A stretch of 64,000 nucleotides of DNA from an uncultured Chthonomonadaceae bacterium (GTDB lineage: Bacteria > Armatimonadota > Chthonomonadetes > Chthonomonadales > Chthonomonadaceae): NCBI GenBank assembly GCA_963835065.1, contig CAWIEK010000057.1:64001-128000 (forward strand), read 5' to 3'. The notes under the pieces are model-generated. The model had not been told where the DNA came from. It did no database searches and was given only the letters and a program-made list of their open reading frames with translations. Made by a program: the position numbers and the translations under genes. Positions 1,894-36,546 of the stretch are shown here, piece by piece. The number at the start of each line of letters is the position of its first letter. The stretch's first letter is position 1.

Positions 1894-2454
1894 GTGGCAA
1901 GGGAGAAGGGCGGAAAACAGGGAACAGAAAAAAACAGTGATGAATGCGGAATGATGAATGATGAATCAGAATCCCATTCATCACTCATCACTCATCACTC
2001 ATCACTTTCCCCAACACCCTTGCCTCGTGTTCTGGCGATTGACCCCGGCACGGCAAAGTGCGGCGTGGCCGTCGTTTGTTCCGACGGCCACGTTCTGCAC
2101 CGGGGCATTGTGTCGGCAGAAACTCTTGTTGAGGAGACGCGAGCGCTGATTGCCGCGCGCCGGCCTTGCCTTATCATTTGCGGCAATGGCACGGGCGCAA
2201 AGCCGATTCTGCAAGCCCTGCAAGCCGCGCAATTCTCCATTTCCGTTCAGGCGGTTGAAGAAGCGCATACTTCGGAAGCCGCCCGAATTCGTTTTGTTCG
2301 TGAAAACCGCCCGCCATTCCTGCAGCGTTTGCTTCCCCGCAGCCTCCGAACACCCTGGCTCCCCTATGATGATTACGTAGCCGTGATTCTCGCGGAACGT
2401 TACTGGCAGGACGCTGCAACGCGCGGCAATTTTCACCATGAACCTGTCAAGTAG
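1894..2454 (+). CDS. YqgF/RuvX-like RNase H-fold nuclease with repeat-derived N-terminus
   Basis: VLAIDPGTAKCGVAV, IICGNGT, VEEAHTSEAAR and DDYVAVILAERY motifs. Start uncertain because residues 1-43 are encoded by heptamer repeats. Confidence 0.8.
   Translation: MAREKGGKQGTEKNSDECGMMNDESESHSSLITHHSSLSPTPLPRVLAIDPGTAKCGVAVVCSDGHVLHRGIVSAETLVEETRALIAARRPCLIICGNGTGAKPILQALQAAQFSISVQAVEEAHTSEAARIRFVRENRPPFLQRLLPRSLRTPWLPYDDYVAVILAERYWQDAATRGNFHHEPVK
1936..2006 (+). repeat. Palindromic TGATGAA/TCATCAC element, copy 1
   Basis: GCGGAATGATGAATGATGAA...CATTCATCACTCATCACTCATCAC, homologous to 8582-8652 and 36101-36174. Confidence 0.85.
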
Positions 2455-2516
2455 ATGGTCAAGTAGATGGATGGTTCAATAGCGCAACCAAAGCGTTTGC
2501 AGGTACAATAAAAATT

Positions 2517-2864
2517 ATGCGTCTGCTCAACCTGCTGAAAAGCAAAATACACCGCGCGGTTGTCACCGAAGCGGACTTGAACTACATCGGCAGTATCACC
2601 ATTGACCTCGATTTGATTGAACGCTCCGGCCTGGTTCTCAACGAACTGGTACACGTCTGGAACCTTGACAACGGCGAACGCTTTGAAACGTATGTGCTGA
2701 AAGGCGAACGCGGGGCGGGGCAGATTGTCGTCAACGGAGCCGCCGCCCATCGCGTCCGCGTCGGGCACAAACTTATTATCGCGGCCTTCTGCCTGACCGA
2801 CGAACCCCTGACGCCCACAGTGATTCTCGTGGACGACCACAACCGCTATGTGCGCGACTTGTGA
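2517..2864 (+). CDS. panD: Aspartate 1-decarboxylase
   Basis: LKSKIHRAVVTEADLNYIGSITID (G-S cleavage site), NGERFETY, NGAAAH. Confidence 0.97.
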   Translation: MRLLNLLKSKIHRAVVTEADLNYIGSITIDLDLIERSGLVLNELVHVWNLDNGERFETYVLKGERGAGQIVVNGAAAHRVRVGHKLIIAAFCLTDEPLTPTVILVDDHNRYVRDL

Positions 2865-2991
2865 AGGCATTAGGCATTAGGCATTAGGCATTAGGAAGAC
2901 CGCCCCGTTTACTGTTACACCGCAAAGAAGGCTAACGTCACTTCAAGGTGGGTTGATTTTCCTAATGCCTAATGCCTAATGCCTAATGCCT
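2865..2991. repeat. Inverted tandem heptamer mini-element (GGCATTA)4 - ~65 bp spacer - (TAATGCC)4
   Basis: Arms at 2865-2895 and 2961-2991. The spacer is unrelated to that of the 109-228 copy. Confidence 0.9.
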
Positions 2992-3002
2992 CGAGCCTAA
3001 CT

Positions 3003-3746: not shown

Positions 3747-3796
3747 ACCCTCCCTGCTCCCGTACTCCGCTATTCTCGTAAAGGAGATTTGCTGCT

Positions 3797-5888: not shown

Positions 5889-7809
5889 TCAGGCGGGAAC
5901 CGTATCCGCCCACTGTCGGCTCCGGTCTTCAATCTCTTTAATCGCGTCTTCTTTTACTTTCATTTCTTCGCTATGCTTCGCGGTTTCCGCCAGTGCTAAC
6001 AACTGCTTGATCGTGTCCCGCCGCGCCGGGTTGCTGCGAATCAAGTCCGAAAGTTTCAGTTGCTTCAAGCGCATACTCAGGCTTTCCAAACGCGCGTCCA
6101 GTTCGGGTGTTGGGTGTTGGGTGTTAGGTGTTGGGGGGGCAGGCAAGGATGAAGGATGAGGGATGAAGGATGAAGCCGCTCCTCCTGTTCCCTGTTCCCT
6201 GTTCCCTGTTCCCTGTGTTTCCTCTTCCTCCTCCGCCTGCCCCGTGTAGCTCCACAACACGCGGACGCGCTGCGCGGATTCGTCAATATCGCGGGCGGAG
6301 CGGCGGGCGTCGTAGCGGAGGGGCAGGATTTTATCCGTGCCTTCGATTCGGGCTTCCAGCGCCATCACCGCGTTTTCATCGTACACGAACAGCACGGACA
6401 GCGAACGCCGCGCGCCCGTTGTGGAAACGGGAATATCGTGGATGGTTTCTTCGCGCAGGCGGGTGGCGCGGGCATCGGTCATCAGGCTGTCGGACGTGGC
6501 GTAGCCCTCATATAAAGTGATAGTTAAGGTTTGCTGCGTGGGGGATTTCAGGGTCAGGTCGGAGCGCAGCTTGCGGAACGGCAGTTCGGCTCCCGGTGGG
6601 ATGAGCAGGCCGTAGCGCTCCTGATGCGTGTGCGGGTCCTCGTAGCTCAGGCCCAGGCCGTGACTGGCAACGTCCTTGAGTTCCAATCGCCGCCCGCTTT
6701 CTTCGCTTCCGAGCAGTCCCAACTGGTCGGCGGCCAGAATGGACGCGCCTTCCGCAACCGCCGTAAGCGGATCGAAGGACAGGCAGCGCGCGCCAAACCG
6801 GGCTTCCATCATTTCGCGCACGGCGGGGATTTTGCAGGTTCCGCCGACAAGCAGCACATGCCCGATGCTTTCGGGCGGCAGATTGCTTTTGGCGACGGCT
6901 TCGTCCAGGCAGGCGCGCGTGGCATCTAAGCAAGGGTTTGGAAATCTGCTCGAACACTTCCCGCGTAATGGTGGCGCGCAGGGAATAATCGCGCCCGTCT
7001 TTTTTGCCGACGTTACGCAGAAAGACGCGCGTGGTCGGGTCGGTAGACAATCGCCACTTGATTTGTTCGGCCTCGTTACGCAGAATGCCGTCCAGGTCGG
7101 GGGCGGGCGTAACGCCGGGTTCGATCTGCTGCCGCAGCCATTCGCGGACGCCATAATCGAAGTCAATGCCGCCCAATTTCGGGTTGCCATGCGTGGAATG
7201 GACGCGCAGCGCCTTTTTGGATTTGGCAAGGATGGTAATGTCCAGCGTACCGCCGCCGAAGTCGAACACGAGCAGGTTTTCCTCGGTTTCAGGGCGTTCG
7301 ATGGTGTAGGAAAGCGCGGCAGCCGTCGGCTCATTGACCAATCGGAGCGGGTTCAGGCCGACGATTTTCGCCGCCGCCAGCAATGCTTCCCGCGCCGCGC
7401 CGCCGAAATTGGCCGGAATGGACAAAACCACATCCTTAATCGGTTCGCCGATTTTAGCCTGCGCGTTGGTGACGATATGCTTCAAAATCAGCGCGGCCAC
7501 TTCTTCGGGCTTGTACGCCTGCCCGAACAGCATAAACGTCTTGTTCGGATCGCCCAATGACCGCTTCACTTCGCGGATCGTATCGGGCGACTCCAGCAAA
7601 TCCCACGCCCGCCAGCCAATCGTGATTTCCGGCGTACTGCCCGGCGCGTCATCCTTCCACGCGGCCACGACGGAGGGCGTCCACGGAGCCTGGTACTGAT
7701 CGCGGGTGTTCGGGTCTGACAGCACACTCGCCATGCCGTACTGGTAGCGCGCCACAAGCGACGTGCTGGTTCCAAAATCTATGCCGATGGCAAACGTCTG
7801 CTGCGCCAT
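5889..7809 (-). CDS. Atypical Hsp70/DnaK-family protein, frameshift near 6930
   Basis: IGIDFGTS, NEPTAAAL, VFDFGGGTLD and LGGIDFD in one frame. LLVGGTCKIP and AVAEGA in the other. Repeat-derived insert at about 6105-6215. Confidence 0.85.
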
Positions 7810-7852
7810 GCTTGCTTTTCTCTCCTCAAAATCCAAAGTTTATAGTACCTCC

Positions 7853-7984
7853 TCACCACCAAGACGCCAAGAACACCAAGAGAAAAATGCAATCGAAGAC
7901 AGTTTCGTCCTCTCATGCAACTTCACAATGCAATTCTTCTCATTCTTCTCGTTTTGCTTGGTGTTCTTAGTGTCTTGGTGGTGA
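7853..7984. repeat. MITE-like element with 28-bp inverted arms made of 9-mers (CACCAAGAA-like)
   Basis: TCACCACCAAGACGCCAAGAACACCAAG (7853-7880) matches the reverse complement of 7957-7984 with 2 mismatches. Confidence 0.85.
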
Positions 7985-7995
7985 AGAGTTAAATT

Positions 7996-9024
7996 TTATT
8001 CTACATGCGGTTTGCGGGCGATTTGTTCCAGTTCCATGGTCACATCGCCAAGCGCGGCTTCCAGGTCGGCGAGCAGGGGCGAGGAAGCGCGGGCAGCGGC
8101 TACGTCTTCCAGATCAATGACTGCGCGCAGTAAACATTCTTCGGTTTGATTGCCGATGACCTGCACGTTGCCCCAGGGGTCTATGACTTGCGAGTTTCCG
8201 CTGAACCCTTTGCCGCCCTCGAAACCGACCAGGCCGGAATACACGACCCACACATTATGCTCGTCGGCAATTCCGGGCAGCAGCACGTTCCAGCGCGCCA
8301 CGTTGCCCACATGCTGCCCGCCAAAATCGCGCCCCGGACTGGCGCTGATGATGTAAATCACCTGCGCCCCCTTTAATGCCGCCAGCATTGCCGTAACCGA
8401 GTGCCACACGTCCTCGCAAATCAGCACGGCAACGGTTCCAAACCGCGACGCAAACGCCCGCACCGTCCGCCCCCGCGACACAAACCGCTTCTCATCAAAC
8501 ACGCCATACGTCGGCAGGAAGAACTTGCGGTGAACGTGAGAAATCGCGGGTGTTGGGTGTTGGGTGTTGGGTATTGAGGATAATGATGAGTGCTGAGTGC
8601 TGAGTGATGAATGGGATTCTGATTTATCATTCATCATTCCGCGTTCAGCATTGTTCCCTTCTTCCTGACCCCTGGCCCCTGATCCCTGACCCCTTGTGAG
8701 CGTGGCATACAGTGCGCTGTTGAAATACTTGCCTTCGCCTAATTCGTAAAAGCCCAGGCAGATGTCGAGGATGGCGTCGGGGCGGGTGACGCGCTCGCGG
8801 TAAACGCGCAGCAAGTCGGCAAATAATTCTTCGCGCGTTTTGGCGATTTCGCGGACGCCGCCTTCCAGAAAATACCCGGACAGAACGGTTTCGGGCAGGA
8901 CAAGCACATCCGGGGCGGGGGCGTCGGCTTCCAACTGCGCGAACAGGTCGCCGATCCGGTTGAGATTGTACGCATAATCGCCCTTTTTCGGCTTAATTTG
9001 CGCTACGGCCACATTCACTTTCAC
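7996..9024 (-). CDS. Carbon-nitrogen hydrolase (nitrilase superfamily, NAD-synthetase glutaminase-like) with in-frame repeat insertion
   Basis: E-K-C triad (LPE, HRKFFLPTYGVFDE, LICED). GTG start after GAGGAGG. Confidence 0.9.
   Translation of the reverse strand: MKVNVAVAQIKPKKGDYAYNLNRIGDLFAQLEADAPAPDVLVLPETVLSGYFLEGGVREIAKTREELFADLLRVYRERVTRPDAILDICLGFYELGEGKYFNSALYATLTRGQGSGARGQEEGNNAERGMMNDKSESHSSLSTQHSSLSSIPNTQHPTPAISHVHRKFFLPTYGVFDEKRFVSRGRTVRAFASRFGTVAVLICEDVWHSVTAMLAALKGAQVIYIISASPGRDFGGQHVGNVARWNVLLPGIADEHNVWVVYSGLVGFEGGKGFSGNSQVIDPWGNVQVIGNQTEECLLRAVIDLEDVAAARASSPLLADLEAALGDVTMELEQIARKPHVE
8548..8695 (-). repeat. Composite heptamer element (GGGTCAG / TGATGAA-TCAGCAC palindrome / CCCAACA) in frame within the nitrilase
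   Basis: Encodes about 49 aa RGQGSGARGQEEGNNAERGMMNDKSESHSSLSTQHSSLSSIPNTQHPTP. Confidence 0.85.
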
Positions 9025-9180: not shown

Positions 9181-11454
9181 ATGTTCGACAGGAAAGTAAT
9201 TGGAGATAAGATGTTTAGAAGGAAGCAATTTGTACAATTATCAATTCTGTTTCTGCTGACAGGAAGTTTGATGGCGGCAATTTTGTGCGCGGCGCGGGCG
9301 CAGTCGCCGCAGACGGTGAAAGCGTTTGAAACGGAAGCGCATGTCGGGCCGGTGGAAAAAGCGCTGGTGGGCGTGGAAGTGAGCCGTTTGGCGCAGAATG
9401 GCAATAGGGTTGTGCGGCATGGAAACGGAATTGTTATTCGCTGCGATGGGTTTGTGCTGACCGCGCAGGCGCTGTTTGGCGAAGTGGTGAACAGCGCGGG
9501 CCAGAATGTAACCGTGACTTTATTTCCCGGCACAAGCGAAGCAAGGCGCGTGACGGCGCGAGTCGTGGGCGCGGCAAACATGGCGCGGCGGGCGTTCGCG
9601 GGCAAGCCGGAACCGCTCGTCGTTCTTAAATTGGCGGATGTACACACGCCTGCCCTGCGCCTGCTCCTGCCGGATGCGCTGTCGGAAGAAAAGCAGGCGA
9701 CGTTAGCCTGGAGCGCATGGGATGAGGCCGGCGGAAAATTTCTGCCGATTCAAAAACGCGCCCTGGCGCTGTCGAACTCTGCGCGGCAGCGTTCCCAATA
9801 GCGGCAATCGTCTGCTGTTTGCGCAGGGCGAAGCGGTTCCGCTTCCCGGCGCTGTTGTTATTGGGCCGGAGGGCATGGGCATTGGCCTGATGACAACGAT
9901 TGCCGCTTCCGCGCCCGATGCCGCTTCTTTCGCCACGCTCAACTCCCTGACCAACTGCGTCACGCCCCAATCGGCAACAGACGCGCAATTCGCAAGCCTG
10001 CGCAGACAGGCAACAGAAGGCGAGGAAACGCAGACGCAAACCAAAGGCGGCGCGGAAACGGCAGCAGCAAATACCGAGGGAACGAACATCCGGGAACGAA
10101 CATCGGCGGCATGGTGCGCATTCCGGGCGGGACAGTGCGCCTGAACGCCCTGCTTCAGCAGTATCAGCCGGACATGGCGCGGCTGCACACGGCCTGCGTC
10201 GCGCCGTTCCTCATAGACCGCTATGAAGTAACCAACGCGCAGTATTGGAAGTTCTGGCAGGCGCTTTCGCACGAAGACCGGCAAAACCGCAAAGCCGAAT
10301 TGTACCCGCTTTCCTGGGCGGATAATCCAGCGCCGTTTCCAAAGGAACTGGATACTGTGCCTGTTCTGGGCGTTCCCCTCGCGGGGGCGCAGGCGTATGC
10401 GAAATGGGCGGGAAAGCGCCTGCCCACGCCGTATGAGTGGTGTTTGGCCGCGTTTGGGCCGGGTGGCGGCACGACCATGCCGGATTGGGTCAACCGCTAT
10501 GTGGCGGATCGGCAGGAAACCTGGAACCGGATCGTCACGGCGCATAATGAGTATGCGCGGCAAAACCCGGACGTTTTCAATACGGGAATGGAGAATGGCG
10601 CGAATGGCATTGCCGCGCAAACCCTGCTGCCCTGGCTGTTCTGGTATCCCTTCGAGGCGCAGCATACGCGCTGGTCGCATGACACGATCATGCGATTAAC
10701 CGCGCATTTGTGGAAGGATTGGATTGATCCGCAGCACATCCTGCCGGGCGGCAGCCGCAAGTTCGATGTCAGTCCCTATGGCGTGTCGGACATGATTTTC
10801 AATGGCGCGGAAATGGTGATGCCGGGTCAAGCATGGCCGGGCGTGGAAAACGGGCAAAGCGCGGACGGCTACATTCAGGTCGGCTTTCCCAATCTCAGCC
10901 CGGACGAACTGGCGAAATTGGGCGACATCCGGCAGTACGCGCCCCGCGCCGTCCGGCTGGAACCGGCGCCCCACTTCGTTGTTTTGCCGGAACCCCTGCT
11001 GTCGCGCCGTCTGCGCGGCCCGGTCACGCTGAACACAACGGACGGCGGCATTTACGCCGAATACATGAACGTCAGCGCGAACCTGCGCGAAGTGTCCGAT
11101 ATGATGGCCCCCGTCGGCAGTGGCGTTGTTGGCATTGCGCCCGGCCCGCAGCGTTTGTGGCCGGACTATGGCTATCTCACGCCCGCGTACCGGGAAGAAA
11201 ACGCGGCGGACGCGCGGCAGCGCTACGGGCCAGGGTTTGCCCCCGAACCTTTCCATGATAACGCGGGGAAAATTCACATTTCCTTTGAAGATGCCGCGTG
11301 GTATGCGCTCTGGAAAACAACCGTTCTGCCCACGCATCGAGAAATGGGCCGGGACGTGACCACCATGCCCCTCGCCGCGCCTCCCCTTGCGCGTGAGCAA
11401 GACCCGACCCTTTCCACCTACCTCGTTCCCGGCGGCTTTCGCTGCGTTCGCTAA
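9181..11454 (+). CDS. Secreted protein: degenerate trypsin-like domain + FGE-sulfatase (SUMF1) domain, split by two frameshifts (~9780, ~10105)
   Basis: Signal peptide, GNGIVIRCDGFVLTA, then MVRIPGG, FLIDRYEVTNAQY, YAKWAGKRLPT, SPYGVSDM and C-terminal GFRCVR. Confidence 0.7.
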
Positions 11455-11514
11455 CCGCCAGAAACAATCCCATTCCAACAAGGTGAAATTTACTTTATTG
11501 AAATGGGATGGGCT

Positions 11515-12840
11515 TTAGAATCGGAACAGGGCGGCTATGGTGGCATTGTCCGGCATGGTTTCGGGGGGCAGCGCGTACACCGTTCCGCTGTGTAGCAACA
11601 CCTGCATGGCCGCGAAGTTGATTAATTCCTCATCCCCGGCTTCCCGCGTTTCGTGCCGGGATACTTGATTGGCTTCGGCATCGAACAGCCCGTAACACTC
11701 CGCGCCAATGGCTGTGAACAGCGTATCCACGCGCCCGAACGCGGCGGCGGACACGATTTCTTCCAGCGATTGCGAAGTGAGGTTGTCAATGGCTTTGGCT
11801 TCCCCGTAGCGCGTCAGCGCGTTTTCCTGCGCCGCGAGGAAAAAAGGCTGCACGAGCGGCCAGGCGCGGTCATGCAGTTCCTGCGCGGACAGTTGCTTGG
11901 GAGTGCCATAAATACCCTCCTCCACGAGATGCTGATAGGTGTTGGACTTGCGATAAATGGGCAGTTCGTACTCCACGCCGGCCAGCACGAGCGGCGCGGT
12001 CTCGTTTTTCAGGTAGGGGTGCAGTCCCTTGTCTACCATGTGGAAAAAGCGGTACAGGCGATCCGCCGTATCTTCGGGAGCCTGGCTGTGCCCGTGAAAC
12101 TGCTGCCCTGCCCCGAAAGCGTTGTTGCGGTTAAAGGCGTGGCGTTCCGGCTCTTCATTCAGCGCTTCGTTCATATCGCCGGGCACATTTTCCAGATGCA
12201 CTTCCTGCAAGCCCGTCCGGTTGCCGCGCAGCAGGCGAATGTTGTTCTGGCCCAGCGTCAGCACGTAAAACCGCCCGTCGCCATTTAGCAGGGGAAGCAG
12301 GGGCTGAATCTGGAAGTGGTCGTTGACCAGCGCCAGATCGGTAAAGGGCTGCGCGACGCGGTACGCGCGAAACAGTTCCGGGGAGCGGAACACGGCGAGT
12401 CCTTCATTGGTGGCTTGCCAGAAGGCGCGGTGTTCCAGCAGTTCCTGCACGGGAACGAGCAATTCCCGCGCCTGATCCGCGTCCATGCCGAGCGTCACCA
12501 GTTGTTTTTCCGCCGAGCGCAGCAGGTTCTTGAATTCGGTCAGGTTCTGGGCGATATTGCCTGCGGGCTGCGTGGACATGTGGATGGACACGCAAACGCG
12601 CGTGGTATCCGCCAGCAGGGTTTTGAGTTCCTCCTGATTGAAGGTATCCACTCTGGGGCTGCCGCTATGCGTGGCGGAGTCGCCGTCCGCTTCCGTAAAT
12701 ATCCCCTGTTCGTCCGCTTCCGCCGCTTCCCGGTCGCGCTCATGACGCTCATGGCGTCCCGCCCGCGTATCGCTATGGCCGGGAGCCTGTTTGTCCAGTA
12801 TCTGAGGCACTTTGGATGGGCTTCTTCTTGATTCCGACAT
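11515..12840 (-). CDS. Bacterial archaeo-eukaryotic release factor-like protein (baeRF3/7-type)
   Basis: CVSIHM, GLAVFRS, PLLPLL...FYVLTL, PLVLAGV, AAFGRVDTLF and IAALFRF pattern. Confidence 0.8.
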   Translation of the reverse strand: MSESRRSPSKVPQILDKQAPGHSDTRAGRHERHERDREAAEADEQGIFTEADGDSATHSGSPRVDTFNQEELKTLLADTTRVCVSIHMSTQPAGNIAQNLTEFKNLLRSAEKQLVTLGMDADQARELLVPVQELLEHRAFWQATNEGLAVFRSPELFRAYRVAQPFTDLALVNDHFQIQPLLPLLNGDGRFYVLTLGQNNIRLLRGNRTGLQEVHLENVPGDMNEALNEEPERHAFNRNNAFGAGQQFHGHSQAPEDTADRLYRFFHMVDKGLHPYLKNETAPLVLAGVEYELPIYRKSNTYQHLVEEGIYGTPKQLSAQELHDRAWPLVQPFFLAAQENALTRYGEAKAIDNLTSQSLEEIVSAAAFGRVDTLFTAIGAECYGLFDAEANQVSRHETREAGDEELINFAAMQVLLHSGTVYALPPETMPDNATIAALFRF

Positions 12841-13339
12841 ATCTTACTTCCTCATTTCTGATGCGCTTATTGTCTGATGCTTTTGCGTCGCAAACACTAC
12901 ACACCGCGCTCACAACTACAGGGATTGTGAGAGCAAGGCTGTGAAACCGACGGAAATAAGACTGACGCAAACAGGCCATTGGAAATCAACGTTTGTTTTA
13001 GCGCGGCCTATATAATTAGTCATTCTGAACCCCCCTGCGAATGTGAAACGCTTGTCTAATCCAGCCACAACTTCACGCGGCTTGTCCATCCACTAACTTT
13101 AGGCGGATACCTGTATGGGAAACATTCCATACGGGGAAGTAAGGCATAAGTTTGGCGACATTGAGCGAACTGATTCGATCTTTCTACAGACTGCCACATG
13201 GCGTCCTGATGATCGGTTTCGAGATCATTTGCGAGGAACTAACGGCTTCTATAGAAACTAAGAGGTCACAGGAAGATCATCGAAAAATCATGGGAAGATC
13301 ATTTCAGAACACGTTTCAAGAAATCGTGAGGAGAACAGG

Positions 13340-13939
13340 ATGAAGACTCGAAACTTATGGGTGGCAACCGTACTTGCCGTTGGAATGACAGGCATCATCG
13401 GCTGCGGCAATAAAGGCGACGACACCGGTGGGAGCGGAACAACGGGCACGTCGGGCGGGGCGTCAGGCAGCGCGTCGGGCGGCAGCGGTTCCAGTGGCAG
13501 CAGTTCTACCGCAAGTGGCGGGTCAGGAACTTCCGGCGGTGGCGGCTCCACCAGCGCATCGGGCAGTGGCGGCGCGTCGGGCATGTCCGGCAGCAGCGGG
13601 GGAACTTCCGGCGGCAGTGGCGCATCCGGCAGCATGTCGGGCGGCAGTGGTTCCAGTGGCAACGCGGGCGGCATGTCCGGCGGCACGGGCAGTTCAGGCG
13701 GAATGTCGGGTGGCACAGGCAGCAGTTCCGGCACATCGGGAAGCGGCGGCACATCGGGCGGCATGTCGGGCGGTTCCGGCAGCGCGGGTGGCATGTCCGG
13801 TGGCGCGAGTGGCGGAACCGGAACCAGCGGCGGCACAACCGGCGGAGCCGGGGGCGGCATGAGCGGTGGCGGTTCCGGCAGTGGCAGCACGGGCAGTGGA
13901 AGTGGCGGCTCCGGTGGTGGGACGGGCGGTGGCGGTTAG
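13340..13939 (+). CDS. Gly/Ser/Met-rich low-complexity lipoprotein
   Basis: GAGGAG SD, signal peptide with IIGC lipobox, then GGMSGG repeats. Confidence 0.8.
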   Translation: MKTRNLWVATVLAVGMTGIIGCGNKGDDTGGSGTTGTSGGASGSASGGSGSSGSSSTASGGSGTSGGGGSTSASGSGGASGMSGSSGGTSGGSGASGSMSGGSGSSGNAGGMSGGTGSSGGMSGGTGSSSGTSGSGGTSGGMSGGSGSAGGMSGGASGGTGTSGGTTGGAGGGMSGGGSGSGSTGSGSGGSGGGTGGGG

Positions 13940-13964
13940 CGCTGATACCGTTTTCTGAACAGTC

Positions 13965-14037
13965 CGCATGAACTACGTTCACCTTGAAGCATGAACATGC
14001 CGAACACCGAACACCGAATACCAAACACCGGCATTTT
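13965..14037 (+). repeat. Dispersed ~75 bp element with CGAACAC heptamers, copy 1
   Basis: GCATGAACTACGTTCACC...GCATGAACATGCCGAACACCGAACACCGAATAC...GGCATTTT. Inverted copy at 23537-23612. Confidence 0.8.
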
Positions 14038-14632
14038 ATGAACAGTCCAGTGTTCTTTTCCGCGTTTCCAAACAGTGTCCGCAGGGAGTGATAATCACGC
14101 CTCTGCGGACGCTTTTTTCAGCGCCCTTATATCCAGCAAAGCGTGGTTTACCATGATTTTGCCCTGGCGCTTTGCCGCGTTTTTACCTGACAGTCCCCAT
14201 GAACTACAATACCCCTGCGGAAATGGACGCGCTGGCGCAGGCCGTCGCCCGTATCGCTGCCGGGTAGGATTACAAACAAGTTCTTAAATAGATTAGTCTC
14301 TACGCCCCCATTTGTTTACCATGTTCCTACCTCTCCCGGTATCCGCCGTAAGATATTGCGTCAGTGCCGCTTTTATAAATAGTCGACGCTACATGTGATT
14401 TCATAGCCATAAGCAAGTCAATGGTTTGGCGCAATTTGGGTTTATAAAACGATCATTCCCCTGACAACATTCGGCAGGCAGCAGGCAGGTGAGCGCATAC
14501 CTGCCGAATGTTCACGGATACCGGGACAGGATTCCGGTTTATCTACTATGGCAGGATAGTCGAATCGCTTGCCGTCCAAACAGCCAATGCTTTTGGAACG
14601 CGCAGGCAAAGGATTGAGAAAGGATTTTCTGA

Positions 14633-14981
14633 ATGGGAACGCGACGTAAATTGTGCGGGATGGTATGCCTTGCCGGCGCGCTTGGCTTCAGCCTGCTGTC
14701 GGGGTGCGATGGTCACTCCTCCAATAATGGCAGCACGGGCACAACCACCGGAACGAGTACAACTACCGGGACAGGCACAAGCAGTGGGACGGGCACAAGC
14801 GGCTCCGGTTCCTCCACAGGAACCGGCGGAACGTCCGGCACAGGAACTGGCACAGGAACCGGCACCGGGACGGGAACGGGTAGTGGAACCGGGACGGGCA
14901 GTGGCGGCACCGGCGGCACCGGACGGCAGTGGCGGCACAGGGTCAGGGACCGGCAGTGGCGGTTCCGGGGGAGGTGGTTAG
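14633..14981 (+). CDS. Gly/Thr-rich low-complexity lipoprotein, frameshift near 14922
   Basis: LLSGC lipobox and (GT)n. The GSGGTGSGTGSGGSGGGG* tail is in a shifted frame. Confidence 0.7.
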
Positions 14982-17604: not shown

Positions 17605-17656
17605 AGGAAATGTAAGCGCCGCTTCTTGCGAATTGTTTACGAAGACAGACAGAATC

Positions 17657-25372: not shown

Positions 25373-25376
25373 GAGG

Positions 25377-25526
25377 AAGATATAAGATATAAGATATAAG
25401 ATATAAGCAGGACAGGCTTTTAGATTGCTCTGTGAAGCGGTTGCTTGTCGTCAAAAACATGCCACACAGTCCCCTGCAAGCTGCCATCCCAAACTTATAT
25501 CTTATATCTTATATCTTATATCTTAT
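25377..25526. repeat. Inverted tandem heptamer mini-element (AGATATA)4 - 86 bp spacer - (TATATCT)4
   Basis: Arms at 25377-25407 and 25494-25526. The right arm supplies the TAA of the aminopeptidase gene. Confidence 0.9.
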
Positions 25527-28129
25527 GGAGCTTCGATCTTCTCGATTGCCGTTTTCGCCGCGTCCTGTGTGAAGGCGCTGGGCGCGTTGGCGGCAAGGGC
25601 GCGCAGGGCTTCCAGCGCGCCCTTGTCCTTGCGGGCGGCGAGGACGCTGATGGCGGTGCGTTGAACAAACTCCTGCGGGTCGTTGAGCATCGCCATCAGC
25701 GCGTCATGCACGCCGGCATCTCCGAGCGCGAGGGTTTTCAGAGCGCTTGCGGCTTGTAAGCGCGTGAACGCATTGTGTTCCGGCTTCATTGCCTGCAACA
25801 GCAGGGGTACGGCCGCATCGCTCTTCGCCGCTGCCAGCGCCTCCACGCTTGCCAGAGCCAGCGTTTCCCCCGGCGTGACCTGCGCGATGTAATGCTGAAA
25901 CACATCCAGGTTTTGAGTGACATTCGACCCGCCGAGTCCGAGCAGCGCGCCGCGCACAACCGCGTAGGGTTCCGTATCGCTAAGAGCGATACTGCGCAGC
26001 AAGCGGTTGTCCTCGTCTGTGGGCGCTAATTGTCCCAGCGCGGCAAGCGCGGCGGCACGGCGGTAAGGCAATTTGGACAGCGCTTCCGCGTGGAAAAGCG
26101 GGCGCAGTTCCTCGCTCTTGGCGCTGCTCAGGCTTCTAATCAGGGTCGCGCCCAGGCTGTTGCCCGGTTCCACCTTCAACACGTCGGTGAACAGGGCGAT
26201 TTTGCCGGCATCCAGGCTTTCCCCCGTCAATTTATTTGCCGCATAAGTTCGGTCTACGGAATTGGGCGCGACACGCAGCAGCAGCGCCATGTCCGCGTCC
26301 GTCCAATGGTTGTCCGGCACTTCCTTGAGCAGATCGTGATCCGGGTCCAGCAGCACAAGCGCGGGCTTTTCCGCGCAGGGCAGATGGAACTCCTGCGTGG
26401 CCTGATTGAGAACCACCCGCTGGCGCTGCAAGGCTTTGCTTCCGGTCTGCGCTCCGCTCCGAGGTTTCTCGCTTGACAGGGCCGCTTGCTTCAAGCCGGA
26501 TGGGGCGGTTCCCATTCCACGCGCCAGGCCGAACGTCACGGGCATGGTGTAAATGGGTGTGCCGTCCGTCGTGTTTTGCAGTTGCTTGACCGTCGCAACC
26601 ACTTCCTTGCGTCCCTCATCATACGTCCACGTCATGTCCAGCACGGGATGGCCGGGCTTGCGTATCCACTGGTCGAAAAACGGCTTGATGTCGTGGTGGG
26701 TTTCTTCCGTGATGGCTTTTTCCAGGTCACTGGTTTCCACCGCTTTATACTCGTTGGCTTTCAGATAGCGGCGCAGGCTGGCGAAAAAGGCTTTGTCGCC
26801 GAGTTCCCGGCGCAGCATGTGCAAAATCACGCCGCCCTTCGCATAAGTGTGCCCCTGCTCGAACATGGCATCGTAGCTGGCATAGGTGTTGGTGCTGAGG
26901 GCGCGCTTGGAACGCGCCGCCGAAGCCAGGTAGGAGCGCGTGTTCCCCTCCACTTCGGCTTCGTAGGTTTCCCTGCCGTTGAGATGTTCCATATAAAACA
27001 TCTCCATGAAGGTCGCAAAACTCTCGTTGAGCCAGATGTCGCCCCAATCTTTACACGTCACCAGGTCGCCGAACCACTGGTGGCCGAGTTCGTGCGAGGT
27101 CAGGCTGGACATGGGGAATTTGTCGCCACGCGGTTCGGCCAGGCTGCGCGATCCCAGCGTGGTCGCGCTGACGTTTTCCATGCCGCCGGGAAAATCGAAC
27201 ACCCAGTCCTGCGCGTACTTGGGCCAGGGATACTTGACGCCCAGATTGTCGGAAAACCAACTCAGCATATCGGGCGTATTGCCGAACGATTCGGGAATCT
27301 GCTTTCCCATGCCTTTGGGAACGACATAATAAAGGGGAACGCCGCGCCACATATCTTTTTGCACGTCCAGTTCGCCGCCGACAAGGGACAGCAGGTACGT
27401 GGAGTGGGGCTGCTTCATTGTCCAGTGAAACGTGCGGGTGTGCGCGTCGGCGTTGAGCGTGGCGGGAGTCTCGAAGCCATTGCCGATGACGGTCCACTCT
27501 TCCGGCACGGTGGTATGGGTTTCGCTGGTGCATTTGTCATTGGGATAATCGTAGCAGGGAACCCACGAACTGTTGGTGTTGGTTTCGCCCTGCGTCCAGA
27601 ACCCCGGTCGGCGGGCCGGCTGATTGGGGCGGGGGTCAATCCACGTGAACCCGCCCGCGCCGTTTGCGCCCGCTCGTGTGCGCGCGCCGACAGCAGGCAT
27701 CGTATAAGCGATTTCTACGGCCACTTCCTTGCCGCCGGCCAGGGGCGCGGCGGGCGTCAGGGTCAGCTGGTTGTTCTGCTGCGCAAAAGGAACATCCGTG
27801 CCGTTGATTTTGCAGGTTTCGATTTTCAGGTTGTCGCGGGCGTCCAAAACTACGGTTGCCAGCGAATCGCGCAGGGGCGTCAGGTAGTGCGTGACGACGC
27901 CATGCGCGGAGTGTTCTTTGGCATTGACATCGAAAATAAGTTTGAGATGCCGCACATGGTAATCGCGGACGCGCTCGGCATGGACGGTGGCGACGGGACG
28001 GTCATTGCGCCGCGCGTTCTGGCCGAATCCGCCCTGCGCCCCTGACATGGGCGCGAGCAGGCTCAAACCGGCAATGGCGGCAAGCGCGGCGAAACCGGCG
28101 CGAAATGGCAACATGGAAAAAGGCTTCAA
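25523..28129 (-). CDS. Secreted M1 family aminopeptidase with C-terminal HEAT repeats
   Basis: GGMEN, HELGHQWFGDLVT...WLNESFA and YAKGG. TTG start after AAGGAG. Confidence 0.95.
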   Translation of the reverse strand: MKPFSMLPFRAGFAALAAIAGLSLLAPMSGAQGGFGQNARRNDRPVATVHAERVRDYHVRHLKLIFDVNAKEHSAHGVVTHYLTPLRDSLATVVLDARDNLKIETCKINGTDVPFAQQNNQLTLTPAAPLAGGKEVAVEIAYTMPAVGARTRAGANGAGGFTWIDPRPNQPARRPGFWTQGETNTNSSWVPCYDYPNDKCTSETHTTVPEEWTVIGNGFETPATLNADAHTRTFHWTMKQPHSTYLLSLVGGELDVQKDMWRGVPLYYVVPKGMGKQIPESFGNTPDMLSWFSDNLGVKYPWPKYAQDWVFDFPGGMENVSATTLGSRSLAEPRGDKFPMSSLTSHELGHQWFGDLVTCKDWGDIWLNESFATFMEMFYMEHLNGRETYEAEVEGNTRSYLASAARSKRALSTNTYASYDAMFEQGHTYAKGGVILHMLRRELGDKAFFASLRRYLKANEYKAVETSDLEKAITEETHHDIKPFFDQWIRKPGHPVLDMTWTYDEGRKEVVATVKQLQNTTDGTPIYTMPVTFGLARGMGTAPSGLKQAALSSEKPRSGAQTGSKALQRQRVVLNQATQEFHLPCAEKPALVLLDPDHDLLKEVPDNHWTDADMALLLRVAPNSVDRTYAANKLTGESLDAGKIALFTDVLKVEPGNSLGATLIRSLSSAKSEELRPLFHAEALSKLPYRRAAALAALGQLAPTDEDNRLLRSIALSDTEPYAVVRGALLGLGGSNVTQNLDVFQHYIAQVTPGETLALASVEALAAAKSDAAVPLLLQAMKPEHNAFTRLQAASALKTLALGDAGVHDALMAMLNDPQEFVQRTAISVLAARKDKGALEALRALAANAPSAFTQDAAKTAIEKIEAP

Positions 28130-30451: not shown

Positions 30452-30791
30452 AAACTACGAACGTTCTACGGCCCACCACCTGGCTGATTAGTAGACGTTT
30501 GTATCTAGTAGACAGGAGGAGTGGGGCGATAGTTTCGGTTTTTTAGCGCTGTACGGCTTTTTTGCTGTCTTTTTGCTGGATTGTGGCTGTGGGAAGAATC
30601 GGGAGAGGGCGCTTGCTTCGGTTCGTGCCTCTATCCCTTCCCGGTTACAGCTCCTGAAATCATTCGCACATTATCGTAACGTTTGCGAATTGCCACAAAA
30701 ACCGCGAAGTCTTGCCGCCATAGCAGCAGGACTTCGCGGATAGGATGCCTTGAACTGTAGGGTCCCTGTCTTGGAAGATGATTCGCGCGGG

Positions 30792-33700
30792 TTAGCGGCT
30801 GCCCTGTCCGGCCAGAACCCGCGTGGCGTAGGTGATGGGCTTGCCGGTGTCGCTGTTGGTGAAATCCAGCGTCACCGTCACGCTTGCGCCTGCCGCCATA
30901 TCGCCCGCCTGTATGGTGAGGTACGGACTGCCTGCCGGTGTGGTCGCGCTCGTGACGCCGGTTTTGTTGAACAGCGCGGCATTGCTGCTCAGGCCATCCA
31001 GCACCAGCGAAACCGGACCGGCAATGGCGGAACTGCCCGTGTTCTTGACCGTGACGCGTCTGCGCGAAACGCCCGGTGGCGCGGTTGAAGCGGAAGGCGC
31101 TGCGCGTGACGCTGACCTGCGAAGAAACGTCTGTAGCGATGTTGGGAAGTTGCGTGACGGTATCCGGCTGCGAGTGCGCGTTTTCCAGGTTGAAGGTGTT
31201 GTCCCGCGCCTGACTGTAAAAGGCATACGTGTGCCCGCCCACGCCCGTAAACGTCGCGCTCGTGTCCGTCGTATTCGTCAGCCAGGGCGTGTACGCGCCG
31301 CCGTTGTCCGAAACATAGATGGTGAAGTCCCGCAATCCCGAACCTACATCCTGCCCCTTCCACGACACAGGGAAGTTCAGCGCGTTCTGCACCCCCGCCA
31401 GTGGGTTTACCTGACTGCTCGGCTTGTCGTTGTCAATGGTATTGAACCAGATGGGTGTGAGCATGGCGGCATTCGCATCGAACACGATGGAAGCCTGATC
31501 GCGGACGATGGTTCCGGTTTTCAGGTTCTTGCGCGGCATGACGGTGAACAGCATACTGCCTTCCTGCCCCGGATCAAGGAAGCCGTTGGGATCGTCGGGA
31601 GCGAGCGGCAGACCAGTAGCCGGATTGATGGAGGTAAACGTCCACGCCAGTAGGCCGTTGTCAAGGTTCAGCTTCGCATTGACATGCACCAGCAGATTCT
31701 TCGTCGGGCGCAGGTCTACGTCGGCGTCGTACTCCCGAACGCCCGCAATGGGGTTGATATGATCTTCGGGCGTGACGGTCTGATTGCCGATAGTGATGGT
31801 TCCCAAACTTAGCGTACTCAGGTCCGCGCCGGGCAAGTCCAGTTGATCCGTGACTTTGATCACCTGCGCCGCCGCTGTCGCTTCCGGCTTATTGGCGAAG
31901 AAGACGGTATACGGCATAGGCTGTGAGCCTGATACCCACTGCGGAGCGCCGAACCCTATCGTTCCAGCGATGTCGTTTGGATCACCGGATGTGATATTCT
32001 CTCCAAAAAGATGAGCTAACGCTTCGCAAGCGAGATCAATGAGGTAATCTTGCACCTTGCTTTTGACCCAATCCTTGGGATTGAGTTCTAGAAGAGCAAC
32101 AACACACAAAACGTGAACTGCTGGTAAGGCTGGTATCAATGCAGGGAACGTGATGCCAACCGCAACATCTATGGCGAGACAGGCTTCGTATGCCTCTGGT
32201 ATGCCAGCTAAGGTTTCGACTTGCTCAACTACGAACTTGATCCATTCACAAGCCAGTTTAAAATCGAAAGGAGTTGACGGGCCAGGTGGCACAGGTGGAT
32301 TAACATAGGTTGAGTTACTTATGTTTACCTGGAAAGTGGCAGTTTGAGAATATCCGGGAACGGTCACTGTTCCAGTTGCCTGACCAGCATTTGACCAGTT
32401 CAAGTTGATGGTAGTTCCCTGTGAGTTGGTCATCAAGGTTGGCTGCAAGTGTTCATTTAATGTCACCGTTGTTACGGTTCCATCGCTGCTAGTGACTTCG
32501 TATTGACCTAACCTACTGACTCGGCCACCAACCATAACTCCGAAGTAGTCTACTGTATTACCTGACTTGGTTCTAGTTCTGATAATACGTCGCTCAGTAA
32601 GGTCTCCTATGTATATCACTCCCCCTACCAACTCCTGATTTATCCAGGCATTGACCTGAAACAGATTGTGAGCGTACCGTGGATCATCAGGTGATTTCAC
32701 ACGTAGCGAGATAGTTTGGGAACTGCCTGCTGGTACAGAAGCAAGTTGAACTCCGATAGCCGTGCTGTTCCCGCCCGTGAAGGTGTCACTGGCTTTCGCG
32801 TCTATCAATTGCCACTCGAAGTAGTTAGGGAACTGGATACGGATGTCTGCGGTGCTGGCGTCCACGTTGCCTGAGTTCTGCACTTGCACGTTGTACGTTG
32901 TCCATGCGCCGCCGCGAATCTGGCTACGTCCAATTACCTGCGTTTGCAGCAACGGTTGTTTGAGGTCTTCGACGGTGAACTGTTGGGGCAGGGTGATGAC
33001 TGTGCCGTCGGGGTTGGTGATGACGACATAGCGTGGGCCTAGCGTTGCGCCAGTCAGATCGAACGTGGTTTGTATACGCGAAGAGCCTTTGAAGTTGGTA
33101 AAAATGAACGTCTTGGTGTTCGTGCCTTGAATGTCCGGCTGTTTGTCGGCAGTCAATTTGACGGATGCGCCCTCCTGAACGCCGTTGAGGAGTATGGTGG
33201 CTGTCACACTGCCACCTTTGCCACCATGATCGGGGAAGATGTTGGTAGCCGCGATGTGGAATGTGTCGAACTCTGGCCTTTAGTGAAGAGGCGTCTCCCG
33301 CCTCATCCGTCGCGAAAGCGAACAGACGCCCATCACCTATCGACACAACGGGCATGTAATAACTTGGTTTGGGCAGGGCAGGGGCAGAAGCCCATCGGGA
33401 AGTTACAGGGTCGTAAGCATCTACTTCGGTGAACGAGGCACTATAATAGTATCTGCCACCAATGACATAGATCAAACCGTCCTGTCCGGTAACGACTGCC
33501 GATTGATTGCGCGGATTGGGCAATGAGGGAAGCGTTGTCCAGGTATTAGCAACAGGATCATAAGCAGCAAAACCTCCAGAGACGCCGAATCCTGCGTAGA
33601 TTTTCCCGTCTGGCCCTGCCGCGATAGTGATTGGATCTCCCATATAGGGCGCAGGCATTCGTGTTATCCACGTTTTTGCTTTTACATCATAGGCCAATAC

Positions 33701-34216
33701 CGTATTAGACGGGTTCCCCTGTGGACGTCCACCGATTGAATAGATTAGCCCATCCGAACCGACTGCAGTGGCGTGGGAGGTCTCATATAAAATTGGCTGC
33801 GGGAGCGACGTAACTGTAGTCCAGGTGTCGGTCACCGTATTGTAGGCTTCGACAGTCGCTACTATATTACCCGAACTGTCAACCCCACCAATGGCATAAA
33901 TCAAGCCATCCGGGCCAGCTACCACACTCAGACCGACGCGGGACGTGGGGAGTGGAGTACCCTTCGTCCAGATGTTCTTTGCCGGGTCATAGATGTCCAC
34001 CGGACTCACGGTGTCATAATAGTCAGGATGGAATTGTCCCCCAACGACATAGATGCGACCATCAGGGCCGACAGCGGCTCCGAAGCCTGCACGCGGTGTC
34101 GGCATGACGGTTGGCTGCGTCCAGCCCGCCTGGGCGAAAGATCGAGATGGCACACAGGTCAGCAAGCAGACCAGAAGTACGAGGATAGAAAGTAGCTGGC
34201 ATAAAGTGCGGTTCAT
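30792..34216 (-). CDS. Large secreted protein: Kelch propeller + Ig-like domains + Cys-rich helical segment + DPN-motif domain, frameshifts near 33250 and 31058
   Basis: Signal peptide SFA-QA, Kelch repeats (IYVVGG...YDP...W), SGDPNDIAG, YTVFFAN and ASIVFDAN. Three overlapping ORFs join into one protein. Confidence 0.8.
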
Positions 34217-34335
34217 CCTACAAGTCTCCCTTCAACAATAGTACAGAGATAACCATCACGAGCAAGGCATCAGCCCGAAAAGACGCGCAGGTAAACGCCT
34301 GACAGACTGGACCACTGAGTTCAAGTTGGCTAAGA

Positions 34336-35970
34336 TTAGCCTTGTAAATGCTGGGCCGTTCCCACGAGCCAGAGAGTGCCGTCATTGCTGAAGGTGACGG
34401 CGTGGGGCGTCACGTCGGCAGGGAGTGGGATGCGCTGCTGCAATTTGCCGTCCGCCGCGTACACGGCAATATCGCGGCTTGTATTGCAGGGAATATAGAA
34501 CCGTTCCTCTTGCGCATGGAAGGCGAACGGGCCATGATATGCGTCCTCCGCCCGCCAGCAACGCAGGAACTCGCCTTCGGCATCGTAAATCTGCATCATC
34601 GGCTCTTCCGGTTTCTCCCGACTGTTGCTACAACGCAACGCAGCGAGTTCTCCGCCGGGAAGCGATTGAAGGCCGGGAAAGTAGGTATCCATCGGCAGTT
34701 GCGCGAACGTCCGCCGCAGTTTCCCCTCGCGTGTATACAGGCCGATAGAACCACCCCGGGTGCTGTAGTGCGCCAGGTACAGACGCTCCTTTGCCGCCAA
34801 TGCGATGCAGGTACAGCATTGCAGAATCAAGGGCTGGACGTGCCCGCCGCCGTTAGTGAATCGTTGCAGCGCATTCCCCGATGTCATCAGCAGCCTGCCC
34901 GAAGCATCGAACGCCATGCCTTTGCCATCGCTAAGCGCGGCGAGGGTGGAACGTCCGCCATAAAAGACGCGCTGCTCCGCGCCGTCCGGCATAAATTCAA
35001 TGACTTCCTGCTGATTTAGCCCTTCCCGTATGGCTCGCTTATGCACCACATACACCCGACCTGGGGTAAAGTCCTGACGCCGCGCTGCGGGCGGCGCAAT
35101 CGCAAGCCCGGCGGGATAGCGCAGCCGCCCCGGCCCGACGATCTGCCGCGCCCGATACACCTTTCCCGCCTCCGGTTCCAGGCAATACAATACGCCGGAA
35201 GACGGAGACGGGTTTGCCGCATAGCCCAACGGCACGGAAGCCGCGTTGGTTGCCAGCATCAACATCATGCCGAAGGATGCCAGTTCCTGCCACTGCGCTA
35301 TGTCTGACAGGTTTTCCAGGCTGTGCGCTGAAATCTGGCAGTCCAGGGGCGAATAGTCACGCGCAAAACAGCGCGCCGTTTCATTTACAAACTTCATCAC
35401 GTCCAGGGGTAAATGGCCCATTGCAATCGCGACGGCCACAGCCTCCTGCGGACTCTGCGTGTTCAGGCGCGTTTGGATGCTTTTCAGAATGTTGTTGATG
35501 TTGGCGGGCGCGCAGCCGCGCTGCATCGCAATTTGCGCGGGCGTTTTGCCCTGCGCGAAAAGAACCAAAATTTCAATCTGCGTTTCGGTCAGCCGCTTTT
35601 TGCCATCCTCGGTCACGGCTTCCTTACGCCGATGGCGCTGTTCGGGAAACAGATTGCCGAACAAGACTTGCAGGACTTCGCCGTTTCCCAACAAAGACGG
35701 CAGACGGTGCAGCATTTCGGCGCGGCGCGGGTCTTCGTCCAGCGTTTGCCGAATGTCGGTAACAATCTTGCGCAGCCAATCGAATTCTGCCAGAGCGGGC
35801 GCGCTGAAGTCGTTTTCCGGCACAGCGTAGGTTCCGGCTTCTGCCTCACCTTCCGCAACAAGCGCTTCCCCGGCCAGATACAGCGCGGAAGTCATCTGCG
35901 CTTCAGCGGCGTAAGGATGGGCAGAAGGCGGGTCAGGTGATTGTGAAGAAGCCTTGTCCGGTTCGCCCAT
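34336..35970 (-). CDS. LuxR-type HTH + C-terminal NHL-like beta-propeller regulator
   Basis: LTETQIEILVLFAQGKTPAQIA...NILKSIQTRL and propeller blades (GMAFDASGRL). ATG 35970 after AGGAAGG. Confidence 0.75.
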   Translation of the reverse strand: MGEPDKASSQSPDPPSAHPYAAEAQMTSALYLAGEALVAEGEAEAGTYAVPENDFSAPALAEFDWLRKIVTDIRQTLDEDPRRAEMLHRLPSLLGNGEVLQVLFGNLFPEQRHRRKEAVTEDGKKRLTETQIEILVLFAQGKTPAQIAMQRGCAPANINNILKSIQTRLNTQSPQEAVAVAIAMGHLPLDVMKFVNETARCFARDYSPLDCQISAHSLENLSDIAQWQELASFGMMLMLATNAASVPLGYAANPSPSSGVLYCLEPEAGKVYRARQIVGPGRLRYPAGLAIAPPAARRQDFTPGRVYVVHKRAIREGLNQQEVIEFMPDGAEQRVFYGGRSTLAALSDGKGMAFDASGRLLMTSGNALQRFTNGGGHVQPLILQCCTCIALAAKERLYLAHYSTRGGSIGLYTREGKLRRTFAQLPMDTYFPGLQSLPGGELAALRCSNSREKPEEPMMQIYDAEGEFLRCWRAEDAYHGPFAFHAQEERFYIPCNTSRDIAVYAADGKLQQRIPLPADVTPHAVTFSNDGTLWLVGTAQHLQG

Positions 35971-36049
35971 AAAATCCCTTCCTGCCGAAGTAAAATGCTC
36001 AGTGGGTAACGTGGAGAAGTATAACACAAAATGGGAAAATGTTTTGGTT

Positions 36050-36546
36050 GTCAATTGCAACCATTCTGGCCGGGATTTTGGAGCGGAAGAGGGGGAAGGA
36101 AGTGATGAATGATGAGTGATGAGTGCTGAATGAACTGCATTTTGTTCATCATTCATCATTCCGCGTTCAGCATTTCCTTCTGTTCCCTTGCTCACCGACA
36201 GTCCGGCATCGTGGAGGCACAAGTTGCGATGTTCTTCAACAAAGGCAAGCTGTTCGGATGTAAGAGAAGCAGACGCAGCAAGGCGGGCAAGAAGAGTGGC
36301 GGCGGAACGGAAGTCACGGAGTTGGCAGGCTTGCTGCGCTTGTTGGTACAGGGGATGGGCTTGCACAACAACAAGGGCGTTTTGTTGCGATGTGGGAGGA
36401 ACAAGCGCGGCGGGATGTAGGCGCGGCACGGCGGCAGACGCCCGCTTGGACGCCAACGCGGCGGAAGGAGGCGCGTGGGAGCAGCCCGTCAGCAGGCACA
36501 GGCCGCAACAAAGCAAAGGAGAACGAACACTACGCCATACGAACAT
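36050..36546 (-). pseudogene. Truncated lipoprotein (LTGC lipobox, TPR-like helices) ending at palindromic element copy 3 (36101-36174)
   Basis: Open in frame with the LuxR gene, but the intervening sequence is AT-rich and intergenic-like. Confidence 0.45.

Follow-up and report, generated by a model that had tools for sequence, protein, structure and literature searches.

Palindromic inserts that undergo translation have been described chiefly for Rickettsia, in about 20 genes. The Rickettsia palindromic elements (RPEs; Ogata et al. 2000, 2002) are described as hairpin-forming repeats of 105–146 bp (PMC2229807), or of ~150 bp in a further account (PMC10969869), which are fused in frame into unrelated conserved proteins and also occur in RNA genes (PMC2229807, PMC10969869). 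In Coxiella, the intervening sequence (IVS) in helix 45 of the 23S rRNA is reported to carry tandem 7-mers preceding an open reading frame (ORF) of the PF05635 family, and to be cut by RNase III, its excision leaving the rRNA fragmented (PMC4990558). Multicopy heptamer and octamer elements have been reported for Geobacter metallireducens (PMC2700814), as have GGGAATC and GGGGA(C/T)T repeats for Xanthomonas and Nostoc (PMC4692102). Here, we describe a hairpin of tandem 7-mers, the GATGAAT-type element, of which three copies lie in frame in unrelated ORFs of a 64,000-nt stretch (the window; contig CAWIEK010000057.1, positions 64,001 to 128,000, assembly GCA_963835065.1) of an uncultured Chthonomonadaceae bacterium, whose genome is designated G000. 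As an overall explanation, it is likely that the element represents a gene-less copy of the arms of PF05635 cassettes, which has multiplied in this lineage, would be translated within genes as tolerated loops and would spread by recombination or gene conversion.

The coordinates, peptides and ORF frames reported for the three hairpins in a preliminary description of the window were all confirmed, and each copy was shown to fold better than its dinucleotide shuffles (z=-5.4, -3.3 and -3.9 for copies 1, 2 and 3, respectively). That description had recognized an imperfect hairpin, while the tandem 7-mer build, the large family to which the copies belong and the tie to PF05635 cassettes had escaped notice. 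In their general layout, the window copies have four GATGAAT-type 7-mers separated by a short loop from four TCATCAC-type 7-mers, resulting in a unit of ~70–76 nt with inverted arms and no mobility ORF, i.e. with the structural features of a miniature inverted-repeat transposable element (MITE). Tandem 7-mers encode an identical seven-residue peptide cycle in whichever frame they are read. The plain left arm contains stops in all frames; in the window copies, CGC GGA (or TGC GGA) replaces TGA TGA of the plain repeat, and the open arm variant of the subfamily has GCGGA or GAGGA at the site of these two stops. As only one of the six reading frames of the element is free of stops, any copy that survives within a gene must use this one shared frame. 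The common sense frame, previously pointed out for the unrelated ORFs, is true for all three copies and at the same time partly forced.

A census of the 8.0-Mb genome (assembly 92% complete) identified 1,329 exact arrays of at least three 7-mer units vs 32 of 6-mers and 6 of 9-mers, an abundance of 7-mer arrays far beyond chance; with mismatches allowed, 2,590 period-7 or -8 arrays were found in 1,672 loci. According to a hexamer coding model made for this study (6,855 genes, 76% coding, likely an undercount), 235 ORFs contain 275 internal, in-frame repeat loci. The subfamily of the window element comprises 63 copies with an open left arm (60 after removal of duplicated contexts) and 58 symmetric copies. 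Among the former, 39 are internal, 15 N-terminal and 5 C-terminal, every one in sense and open frame, the remaining four being situated in non-coding open frames (three copies) or outside any open frame (one copy). A genome-wide frame bias, proposed earlier as a check, is thus borne out, with 59/63 open-arm copies in sense and open frame in coding-like ORFs vs 16% for random placement; following de-duplication, 56/60 are in frame with coding-like flanks, compared with 43% if survivable places only are considered. Two properties that were not used to define the copies follow the same pattern: the loop length is frame-preserving in 57/63 open-arm copies, and loop plus right arm are stop-free in 62/63. 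A stop directly follows the arm in 1/63 open-arm copies, 30/58 symmetric copies and 25/103 matches from other genomes (among the matches listed), and 54/58 symmetric copies are without an open frame, which is partly so by definition. Open-arm copies are almost confined to in-frame positions within ORFs, and the stop-laden symmetric copies are intergenic. Other arrays are located next to 32 of the 60 open-arm copies, which are nested among them, the other 28 being bare.

Related families were also observed. A sister GGATGAA family (11 loci in G000) exhibits the same GCGGA change and the peptide KDEGGRMKDE, with 9/11 exact copies internal and in frame. A second large family, present at many loci (e.g. 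C42:4384-4599), has ACAGAGGC-type 8-mer arms with nested inner hairpins of 150–300 nt, and is almost never gene-internal.

Peptide polarity provides a further indication of translation. Where neither strand of a repeat family contains a stop, 338/361 in-gene arrays are oriented so as to give the hydrophilic peptide and 23/361 the hydrophobic one, while nine both-strand-open families situated between co-directional genes split 35 vs 31 (n=66). Furthermore, 161/177 internal gene loci with multiple arrays pair the left arm of one family with the right arm of another, and 252/340 loci without an open frame are true inverted pairs. Given the preferred hydrophilic orientation and the mixed arms within genes, selection appears to see the peptide rather than the stem. 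Twenty host ORFs were picked for annotation, five of which had no NCBIfam match; for TopA, ValS, ProS, phosphoenolpyruvate (PEP) carboxylase and xylonate dehydratase, matches passing the curated cut-offs span the insert. TopA and PEP carboxylase are each encoded by a single copy in the assembly, a second, broken copy is present for ValS, and the ProS ORF lacks the first 98 model positions. Judged from these sequence features, the gene inserts are very probably translated, as disordered and tolerated surface loops, and not cut from the RNA. Of the two explanations offered previously, that of a mobile repeat generating peptide loops therefore holds insofar as the repeat is dispersed, in frame in unrelated genes and likely translated. 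Peptides such as HSSLITHHSS and GNREQGT represent repeat read-through and not protein motifs, which calls for caution among annotators.

The nitrilase-family gene of the window harbours a composite insert, in which the hairpin is flanked by a GGGGTCA run and a CCCAACA run (Table 1). It is located, as stated in the preliminary description, between ALYATL and HVHRK; its size, previously given as 49 residues, was revised to a net 44 residues (132 nt), since this interval encompasses 53 residues vs 9 in the closest congener, G001. In a contig with ~94% identity, 28 nt likewise take the place of the 160 nt of the window, again a net difference of 132 nt. The triad was correctly described as intact, the catalytic roles of Glu45, Lys167 and Cys203 being those established for the nitrilase superfamily. 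In total, 24 relatives were aligned, and the N..HRK span, obtained for the 20 matched by DNA extraction, ranges from 22 to 83 residues vs 66 in the window nitrilase. The objection raised in advance, that orthologues might have a loop of similar length here, partly applies, as some of them do have long loops at this position, albeit of different sequence. Several relatives accommodate long inserts of unrelated sequence in this loop, which is therefore permissive and an insert hot spot. In an AlphaFold2 model, the insert is placed in a turn between strands 99–110 and 160–166, with a predicted local distance difference test score below 50 over residues 117–154.

Both 23S rRNA genes of G000 (C49:338082-341304 and C51:114802-118025; loci L112 and L113) are ~300 nt longer than the model, each with three inserts of ~120–150 nt with 7-mer arms at approximately E. 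coli positions 274–303, 1149–1184 and 1844–1887. We take the second of these positions to be the helix-45 IVS site and the third to be helix 68. The unit of the helix-45 insert is identical to that of the arms of the PF05635 gene on contig C8. Different inserts occupy matching 23S sites in congeners, helix 45 exhibiting three different units in three congeners and no insert in G005 and G023, and the third insert being absent from G002. RNA-level removal is plausible solely for these sister hairpins of 23S rRNA. Separately, G013 was observed to contain two 23S-like matches of 3,541 nt (C2:2550-6090 and 10172-13712; L122) with scores far below that of its main copy.

PF05635, the family of 23S rRNA IVS proteins, is a four-helix bundle related to the solved Xcc0516. 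All three PF05635 genes of the genome lie, by eye, between inverted 7- or 8-mer arms. Arrays were detected on both sides of 17/23 tested PF05635 loci, compared with 0/1,140 control window pairs; two of 25 loci without alignment had been dropped and five weak loci excluded, and the tested loci include the C25 copy of G000 itself, scored as one-sided by the automatic test. In a scan of GTDB genomes, at least 96 stretches containing the exact 27-nt open arm were obtained, which belong to Acidobacteriota, Planctomycetota, Chloroflexota, KSB1 and Proteobacteria, among other groups, and the exact pattern was found in G000 and in none of 60 relatives. Within 400-nt flanks, the open arm directly precedes a PF05635 gene in one of these at least 96 stretches (L128) and follows one in another (L155). 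In L128 (start of the - strand), a single case, the GCGGA of the arm is positioned 7 nt before the start of the four-helix-bundle gene and resembles a ribosome-binding site. Based on this evidence, the element is quite likely to be akin to the arms of four-helix-bundle cassettes, a cassette type without a formal description as a family.

Among the 103 matches listed for other genomes, 11 are located in through-reading frames and a further 64 occupy short frames, and both arms carry the variant in 13 of the 96 stretches; the idea that the stop-free arm arose as a local coding adaptation was dropped on these grounds. Since other phyla carry this arm mostly outside through-reading frames, it presumably predates entry into genes, as a standing variant that was sorted by selection and not designed. 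All three genes of the GxxExxY type (PF13366), which has a nuclease fold, in G000 were also observed between inverted arms of 8- to 9-base units (C19:8329-8673, C39:76631-76981 and C3:174084-174431), representing a parallel cassette type with a possibly catalytic protein. Immediately downstream of the nitrilase gene (window 7853-7984) lies a hairpin whose 9-mer-like arms resemble these PF13366 cassette arms; it is matched by many contigs of other runs.

The contents of individual sites turn over while the sites stay occupied. The ValS site contains three different repeats in G000, G001 and G002, and is empty in G019 and G021, which belong to two other genera. Among 14 paralogues of what we take to be a DUF1553-like family, 11 have modules at one site, and neither the filled paralogues nor the five with GATGAAT-type arms form a clade (14 rows, 266 columns, midpoint root; groups fixed by script beforehand). 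A single old insertion, requiring one clade of filled rows, was rejected by the approximately unbiased test (p-AU 2e-35); an old gain followed by several losses may account for these modules. No excess of flanking direct repeats of 3–8 nt and no TA ends were found in 118 copies, the commonest ends being GGAAAT and ATTTCC. Repeats other than the GATGAAT-type element flank the four Y1 transposase hits, and long-spaced arm pairs, inspected by eye, contain no transposase, the Y1 family being the one insertion sequence family surveyed. Template switching from flanking host DNA was considered and found to be weak, as the outward pairing run was 2.9 vs 2.3 in shuffled sequences for open-arm copies, which kinship among copies could explain, with no excess for symmetric copies.

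The missing target duplications, the mixing of left and right arms and the different modules at one site in congeners or paralogues favour recombination or gene conversion between 7-mer arms of similar sequence as the route by which most of the spread would occur. Such arm exchange would swap modules at sites that already tolerate an insert, supplemented by occasional new insertions, and purifying selection would retain the in-frame, hydrophilic versions. That conversion-type spread is the main route is rated at slightly under an even chance. From its packaging between arms, the four-helix-bundle protein is guessed to bind the arms and assist their exchange.

The principal alternative is a classical MITE, i.e. 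a fixed 70-nt unit mobilized by a transposase in trans and inserted at random, of which only in-frame gene copies survive. Its inverted arms would fit, as would the 92% mean arm identity of open-arm copies and the lack of variation of one base at a synonymous position, which suggest a single master copy, together with the restriction of the exact arm pattern to G000 among 61 related genomes; with both forms pooled, about half of the 118 copies are in frame, which is near the 43% survivable-place expectation. The absence of target-site repeats and TA ends, the different flanks of the Y1 genes and the prevalence of mixed arms in genes nevertheless argue against it, as does the near absence of open-arm copies between genes (4/60), and we consider a MITE unlikely. 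Removal from mRNA by RNase III-type cutting or splicing, the second of the earlier explanations, is compatible with the stable hairpins, with an ORF bearing an RNase III-like motif in the genome and with the sister hairpins in 23S rRNA, one of which occupies the helix-45 site of IVSs that RNase III removes in other bacteria (PMC4990558). However, IVS-type cutting as described in that account leaves pieces and would destroy an mRNA (PMC4990558), and the arms of most in-gene composites are not complementary. Moreover, the preserved frame, the avoidance of stops (62/63 copies) and an orientation that follows peptide polarity would be needless if the insert were excised. For gene copies, this explanation is therefore disfavoured and regarded as very unlikely.

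Local slippage, generating arrays without copying between loci, would explain the short units and their variable numbers, and 7-mer repeats are reported as over-represented in many bacteria (PMC4692102). Dozens of loci have the four-plus-four layout, the arm variant and the loop sequences in common, and the exact 27-nt arm recurs in several phyla, which speaks against independent origins; the common loops and arm variant largely refute slippage, to which we assign hardly any probability. Alternatively, the inserts may have been retained for a function, be it as His/Ser-rich loops, as mRNA structures or as protein-binding sites regulating host genes. Occupation of the ValS and 23S rRNA sites across the genus would be consistent with this, the ATGs in the arms could supply starts, and, in a single case, GCGGA is found 7 nt before the start of the L128 cassette gene. 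Conversely, the sequence at a given site is not conserved between congeners or paralogues, relatives lack the inserts, and the hosts have no common function, rendering functional retention improbable.

Several observations weigh against the overall explanation favoured here. GATGAAT-type arms were found at none of the three PF05635 genes of this 92% complete assembly, which have other units, and no cargo gene was found between GATGAAT arms in the 44 pairs with a spacing of 150–1,500 nt that were inspected out of 471 inverted pairs. Genome G001 (97% completeness) yielded no PF05635 match despite repeat inserts in ValS and 23S rRNA, which indicates that the PF05635 protein is not required to keep or carry inserts; a rule whereby genomes without PF05635 have no inserts was rejected for the same reason. 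The 28 copies with no other detected array alongside may in many cases be fresh insertions and not replacements, and N-terminal copies may partly sit upstream of the true start. Coding calls were derived from the in-house hexamer model and not from a validated gene finder. Finally, the assembly contains apparent frameshifts and duplicated stretches, and the copies are non-independent, so that p-values overstate the significance. The duplicated stretches (C43 71152-73747 vs C69 35417-38464; C25 vs C37; C26 vs C55), which suggest assembly redundancy or errors, include a copy of ValS whose hairpin loop contains one additional base.

The remaining sites of the window are presented in Table 1. For copy 1, the reported position at a YqgF-like N-terminus was partly upheld: the hairpin does lie in the leader of such an ORF, but the match to Pfam RuvX is weak (E 6e-4, under the cut-off) and the start is uncertain, candidates being GTG at 1894, ATG at 1951/1954 (inside the hairpin) and TTG at 2020. 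In congener G002, the matching place of this gene is taken by a different, nested hairpin of 7-mers. The third ORF, rightly regarded as a lipoprotein remnant, corresponds to the front half of a lipoprotein–C39 peptidase gene that is broken a few codons past copy 3, and likely runs on by chance into the LuxR-type gene; no sigma-70 promoter was found behind copy 3. The relatives are lipoprotein–linker–C39 peptidase proteins, three examples of which differ from one another in the repeat module of the linker. One copy (C53 ~471145-471165, - strand) lacks the front half, its C39 half beginning at a right arm, and another (C16 ~1250-1490, - strand) has a different linker module and an apparent later frameshift; gene breaks coincide with the element at both the window and the C53 locus. 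The Hsp70-family gene (window 5889-7836, - strand) is split over two overlapping frames, reflecting a true frameshift or an assembly error, and a Kelch-repeat gene (30631-34216, - strand) seems to span more than one frame, possibly owing to a frameshift. Unrelated to the 7-mer family is a cluster (13288-18374) of low-complexity ORFs that are rich in Gly/Ser/Thr and contain repeats of 12 to 30 nt.

Table 1. Repeat copies and associated genes in the 64,000-nt window
Feature	Position	Strand	Remarks
Hairpin copy 1	1936..2006	+	Arms of four units each (left, GATGAAT-type with GCGGA variant; right, TCATCAC) separated by a short loop; peptide SDECGMMNDESESHSSLITHHSSL
Hairpin copy 2	8582..8652	-	In frame inside nitrilase-family gene; peptide NAERGMMNDKSESHSSLSTQHSSL
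Hairpin copy 3	36101..36174	-	Longer loop; peptide NAERGMMNDEQNAVHSALITHHSSL
Nitrilase-family (CN_hydrolase) gene	7996..9024	-	Glu45, Lys167 and Cys203 invariant in 20 aligned sequences; insert in predicted turn
Outer left module of nitrilase insert, GGGGTCA-type 7-mer run	8664..8693	-	Peptide GQGSGARGQ
Outer right module of nitrilase insert, CCCAACA 7-mer run	8548..8571	-	Peptide PNTQHPT
Complete composite nitrilase segment, 160 nt	8539..8698	-	28 nt in close relative; net +132 nt, +44 residues
YqgF/RuvX-like ORF	1894..2454	+	Hairpin in N-terminal leader
Front half of lipoprotein	36175..36546	-	Relatives continue into C39 peptidase domain; domain missing past hairpin
LuxR-type helix-turn-helix and beta-propeller-like gene	34336..35895	-	Same frame as broken lipoprotein; probably an independent gene
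Sister composite insert (left arm, GGGAACA; right arms, CATCCTT and CCCAACA)	6103..6217	-	In frame near C-terminus of Hsp70-family ORF
Symmetric intergenic hairpin, sister AATGCCT family	108..229	.	Without open frame
Symmetric intergenic hairpin, sister AATGCCT family	2864..2992	.	Between panD and phosphoesterase gene
Inverted pair of AAGATAT 7-mer runs	25376..25527	.	Intergenic

The element belongs to a little-studied family of likely mobile DNA, of which gene-bearing cassettes, empty hairpins, probably translated copies and rRNA inserts are found together in one genome. The in-frame loci, with their pronounced hydrophilic orientation, constitute a natural map of loop tolerance in proteins, in which selfish DNA would seed new protein sequence, and two old questions, the origin of rRNA IVSs and the function of the PF05635 protein, become testable in one system. 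PF05635 cassettes, helix-45 rRNA IVSs and the unexplained 7-mer repeats of bacteria could conceivably form one transposase-free mobile system, whose arms would recolonise and overwrite permissive spots in proteins and rRNA, here giving rise to new loops in more than 200 ORFs; we propose this tentatively and consider it rather doubtful. A literature search, for which subscription journals and supplements were mostly outside the scope, retrieved no paper on genome-wide translated 7-mer hairpins or on their tie to PF05635 cassettes outside rRNA. Small dispersed repeats of cyanobacteria, reportedly treated by Elhai in 2008, and a 7-mer insert said to be present in Anabaena nifJ may be closer precedents.

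Compared with the systems described to date, the Neisseria Correia (NEMIS) MITEs of 107 and 155 bp are similar in having two related forms, an open-frame one in genes and an intergenic one with stops in all frames, but, according to the account in PMC2229807, they possess TA ends and target duplications, neither of which was found for the G000 element. Unlike repetitive extragenic palindromes and their associated tyrosine transposases (REP/RAYT), the Y1 genes here adjoin other repeats and not the GATGAAT-type palindrome. The repeats of Geobacter, Xanthomonas and Nostoc are likewise runs of about four tandem 7-mers, frequently paired in inverted orientation, and are found in intergenic regions as well as inside genes, yet are interpreted as regulator sites or quadruplexes, with neither a frame analysis nor a link to four-helix-bundle genes in these accounts (PMC2700814, PMC4692102). 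The Coxiella helix-45 IVS, as reported in PMC4990558, is also a stem-forming 7-mer insert, and the gene-less 7-mer hairpin of G000 at the corresponding 23S position shares its unit with the arms of one of its PF05635 genes; in contrast, the window copies reside in protein genes and contain no ORF, and the PF05635 genes of G000 are located outside rRNA. The analogy with RPEs, drawn in the preliminary description, holds for the mode of action, namely a hairpin-forming repeat that is fused in one frame to conserved proteins of unrelated kinds and would yield a recurring peptide, with family members also in RNA genes; it does not hold for size, the GATGAAT-type unit being ~70 nt vs the 105–146 bp given for RPEs (PMC2229807), or for build, as the present element is composed of tandem 7-mers, occurs with a multitude of exchangeable arm families, forms nested composites and is matched by the arms of four-helix-bundle cassettes. 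The element would act like an RPE but is not one.

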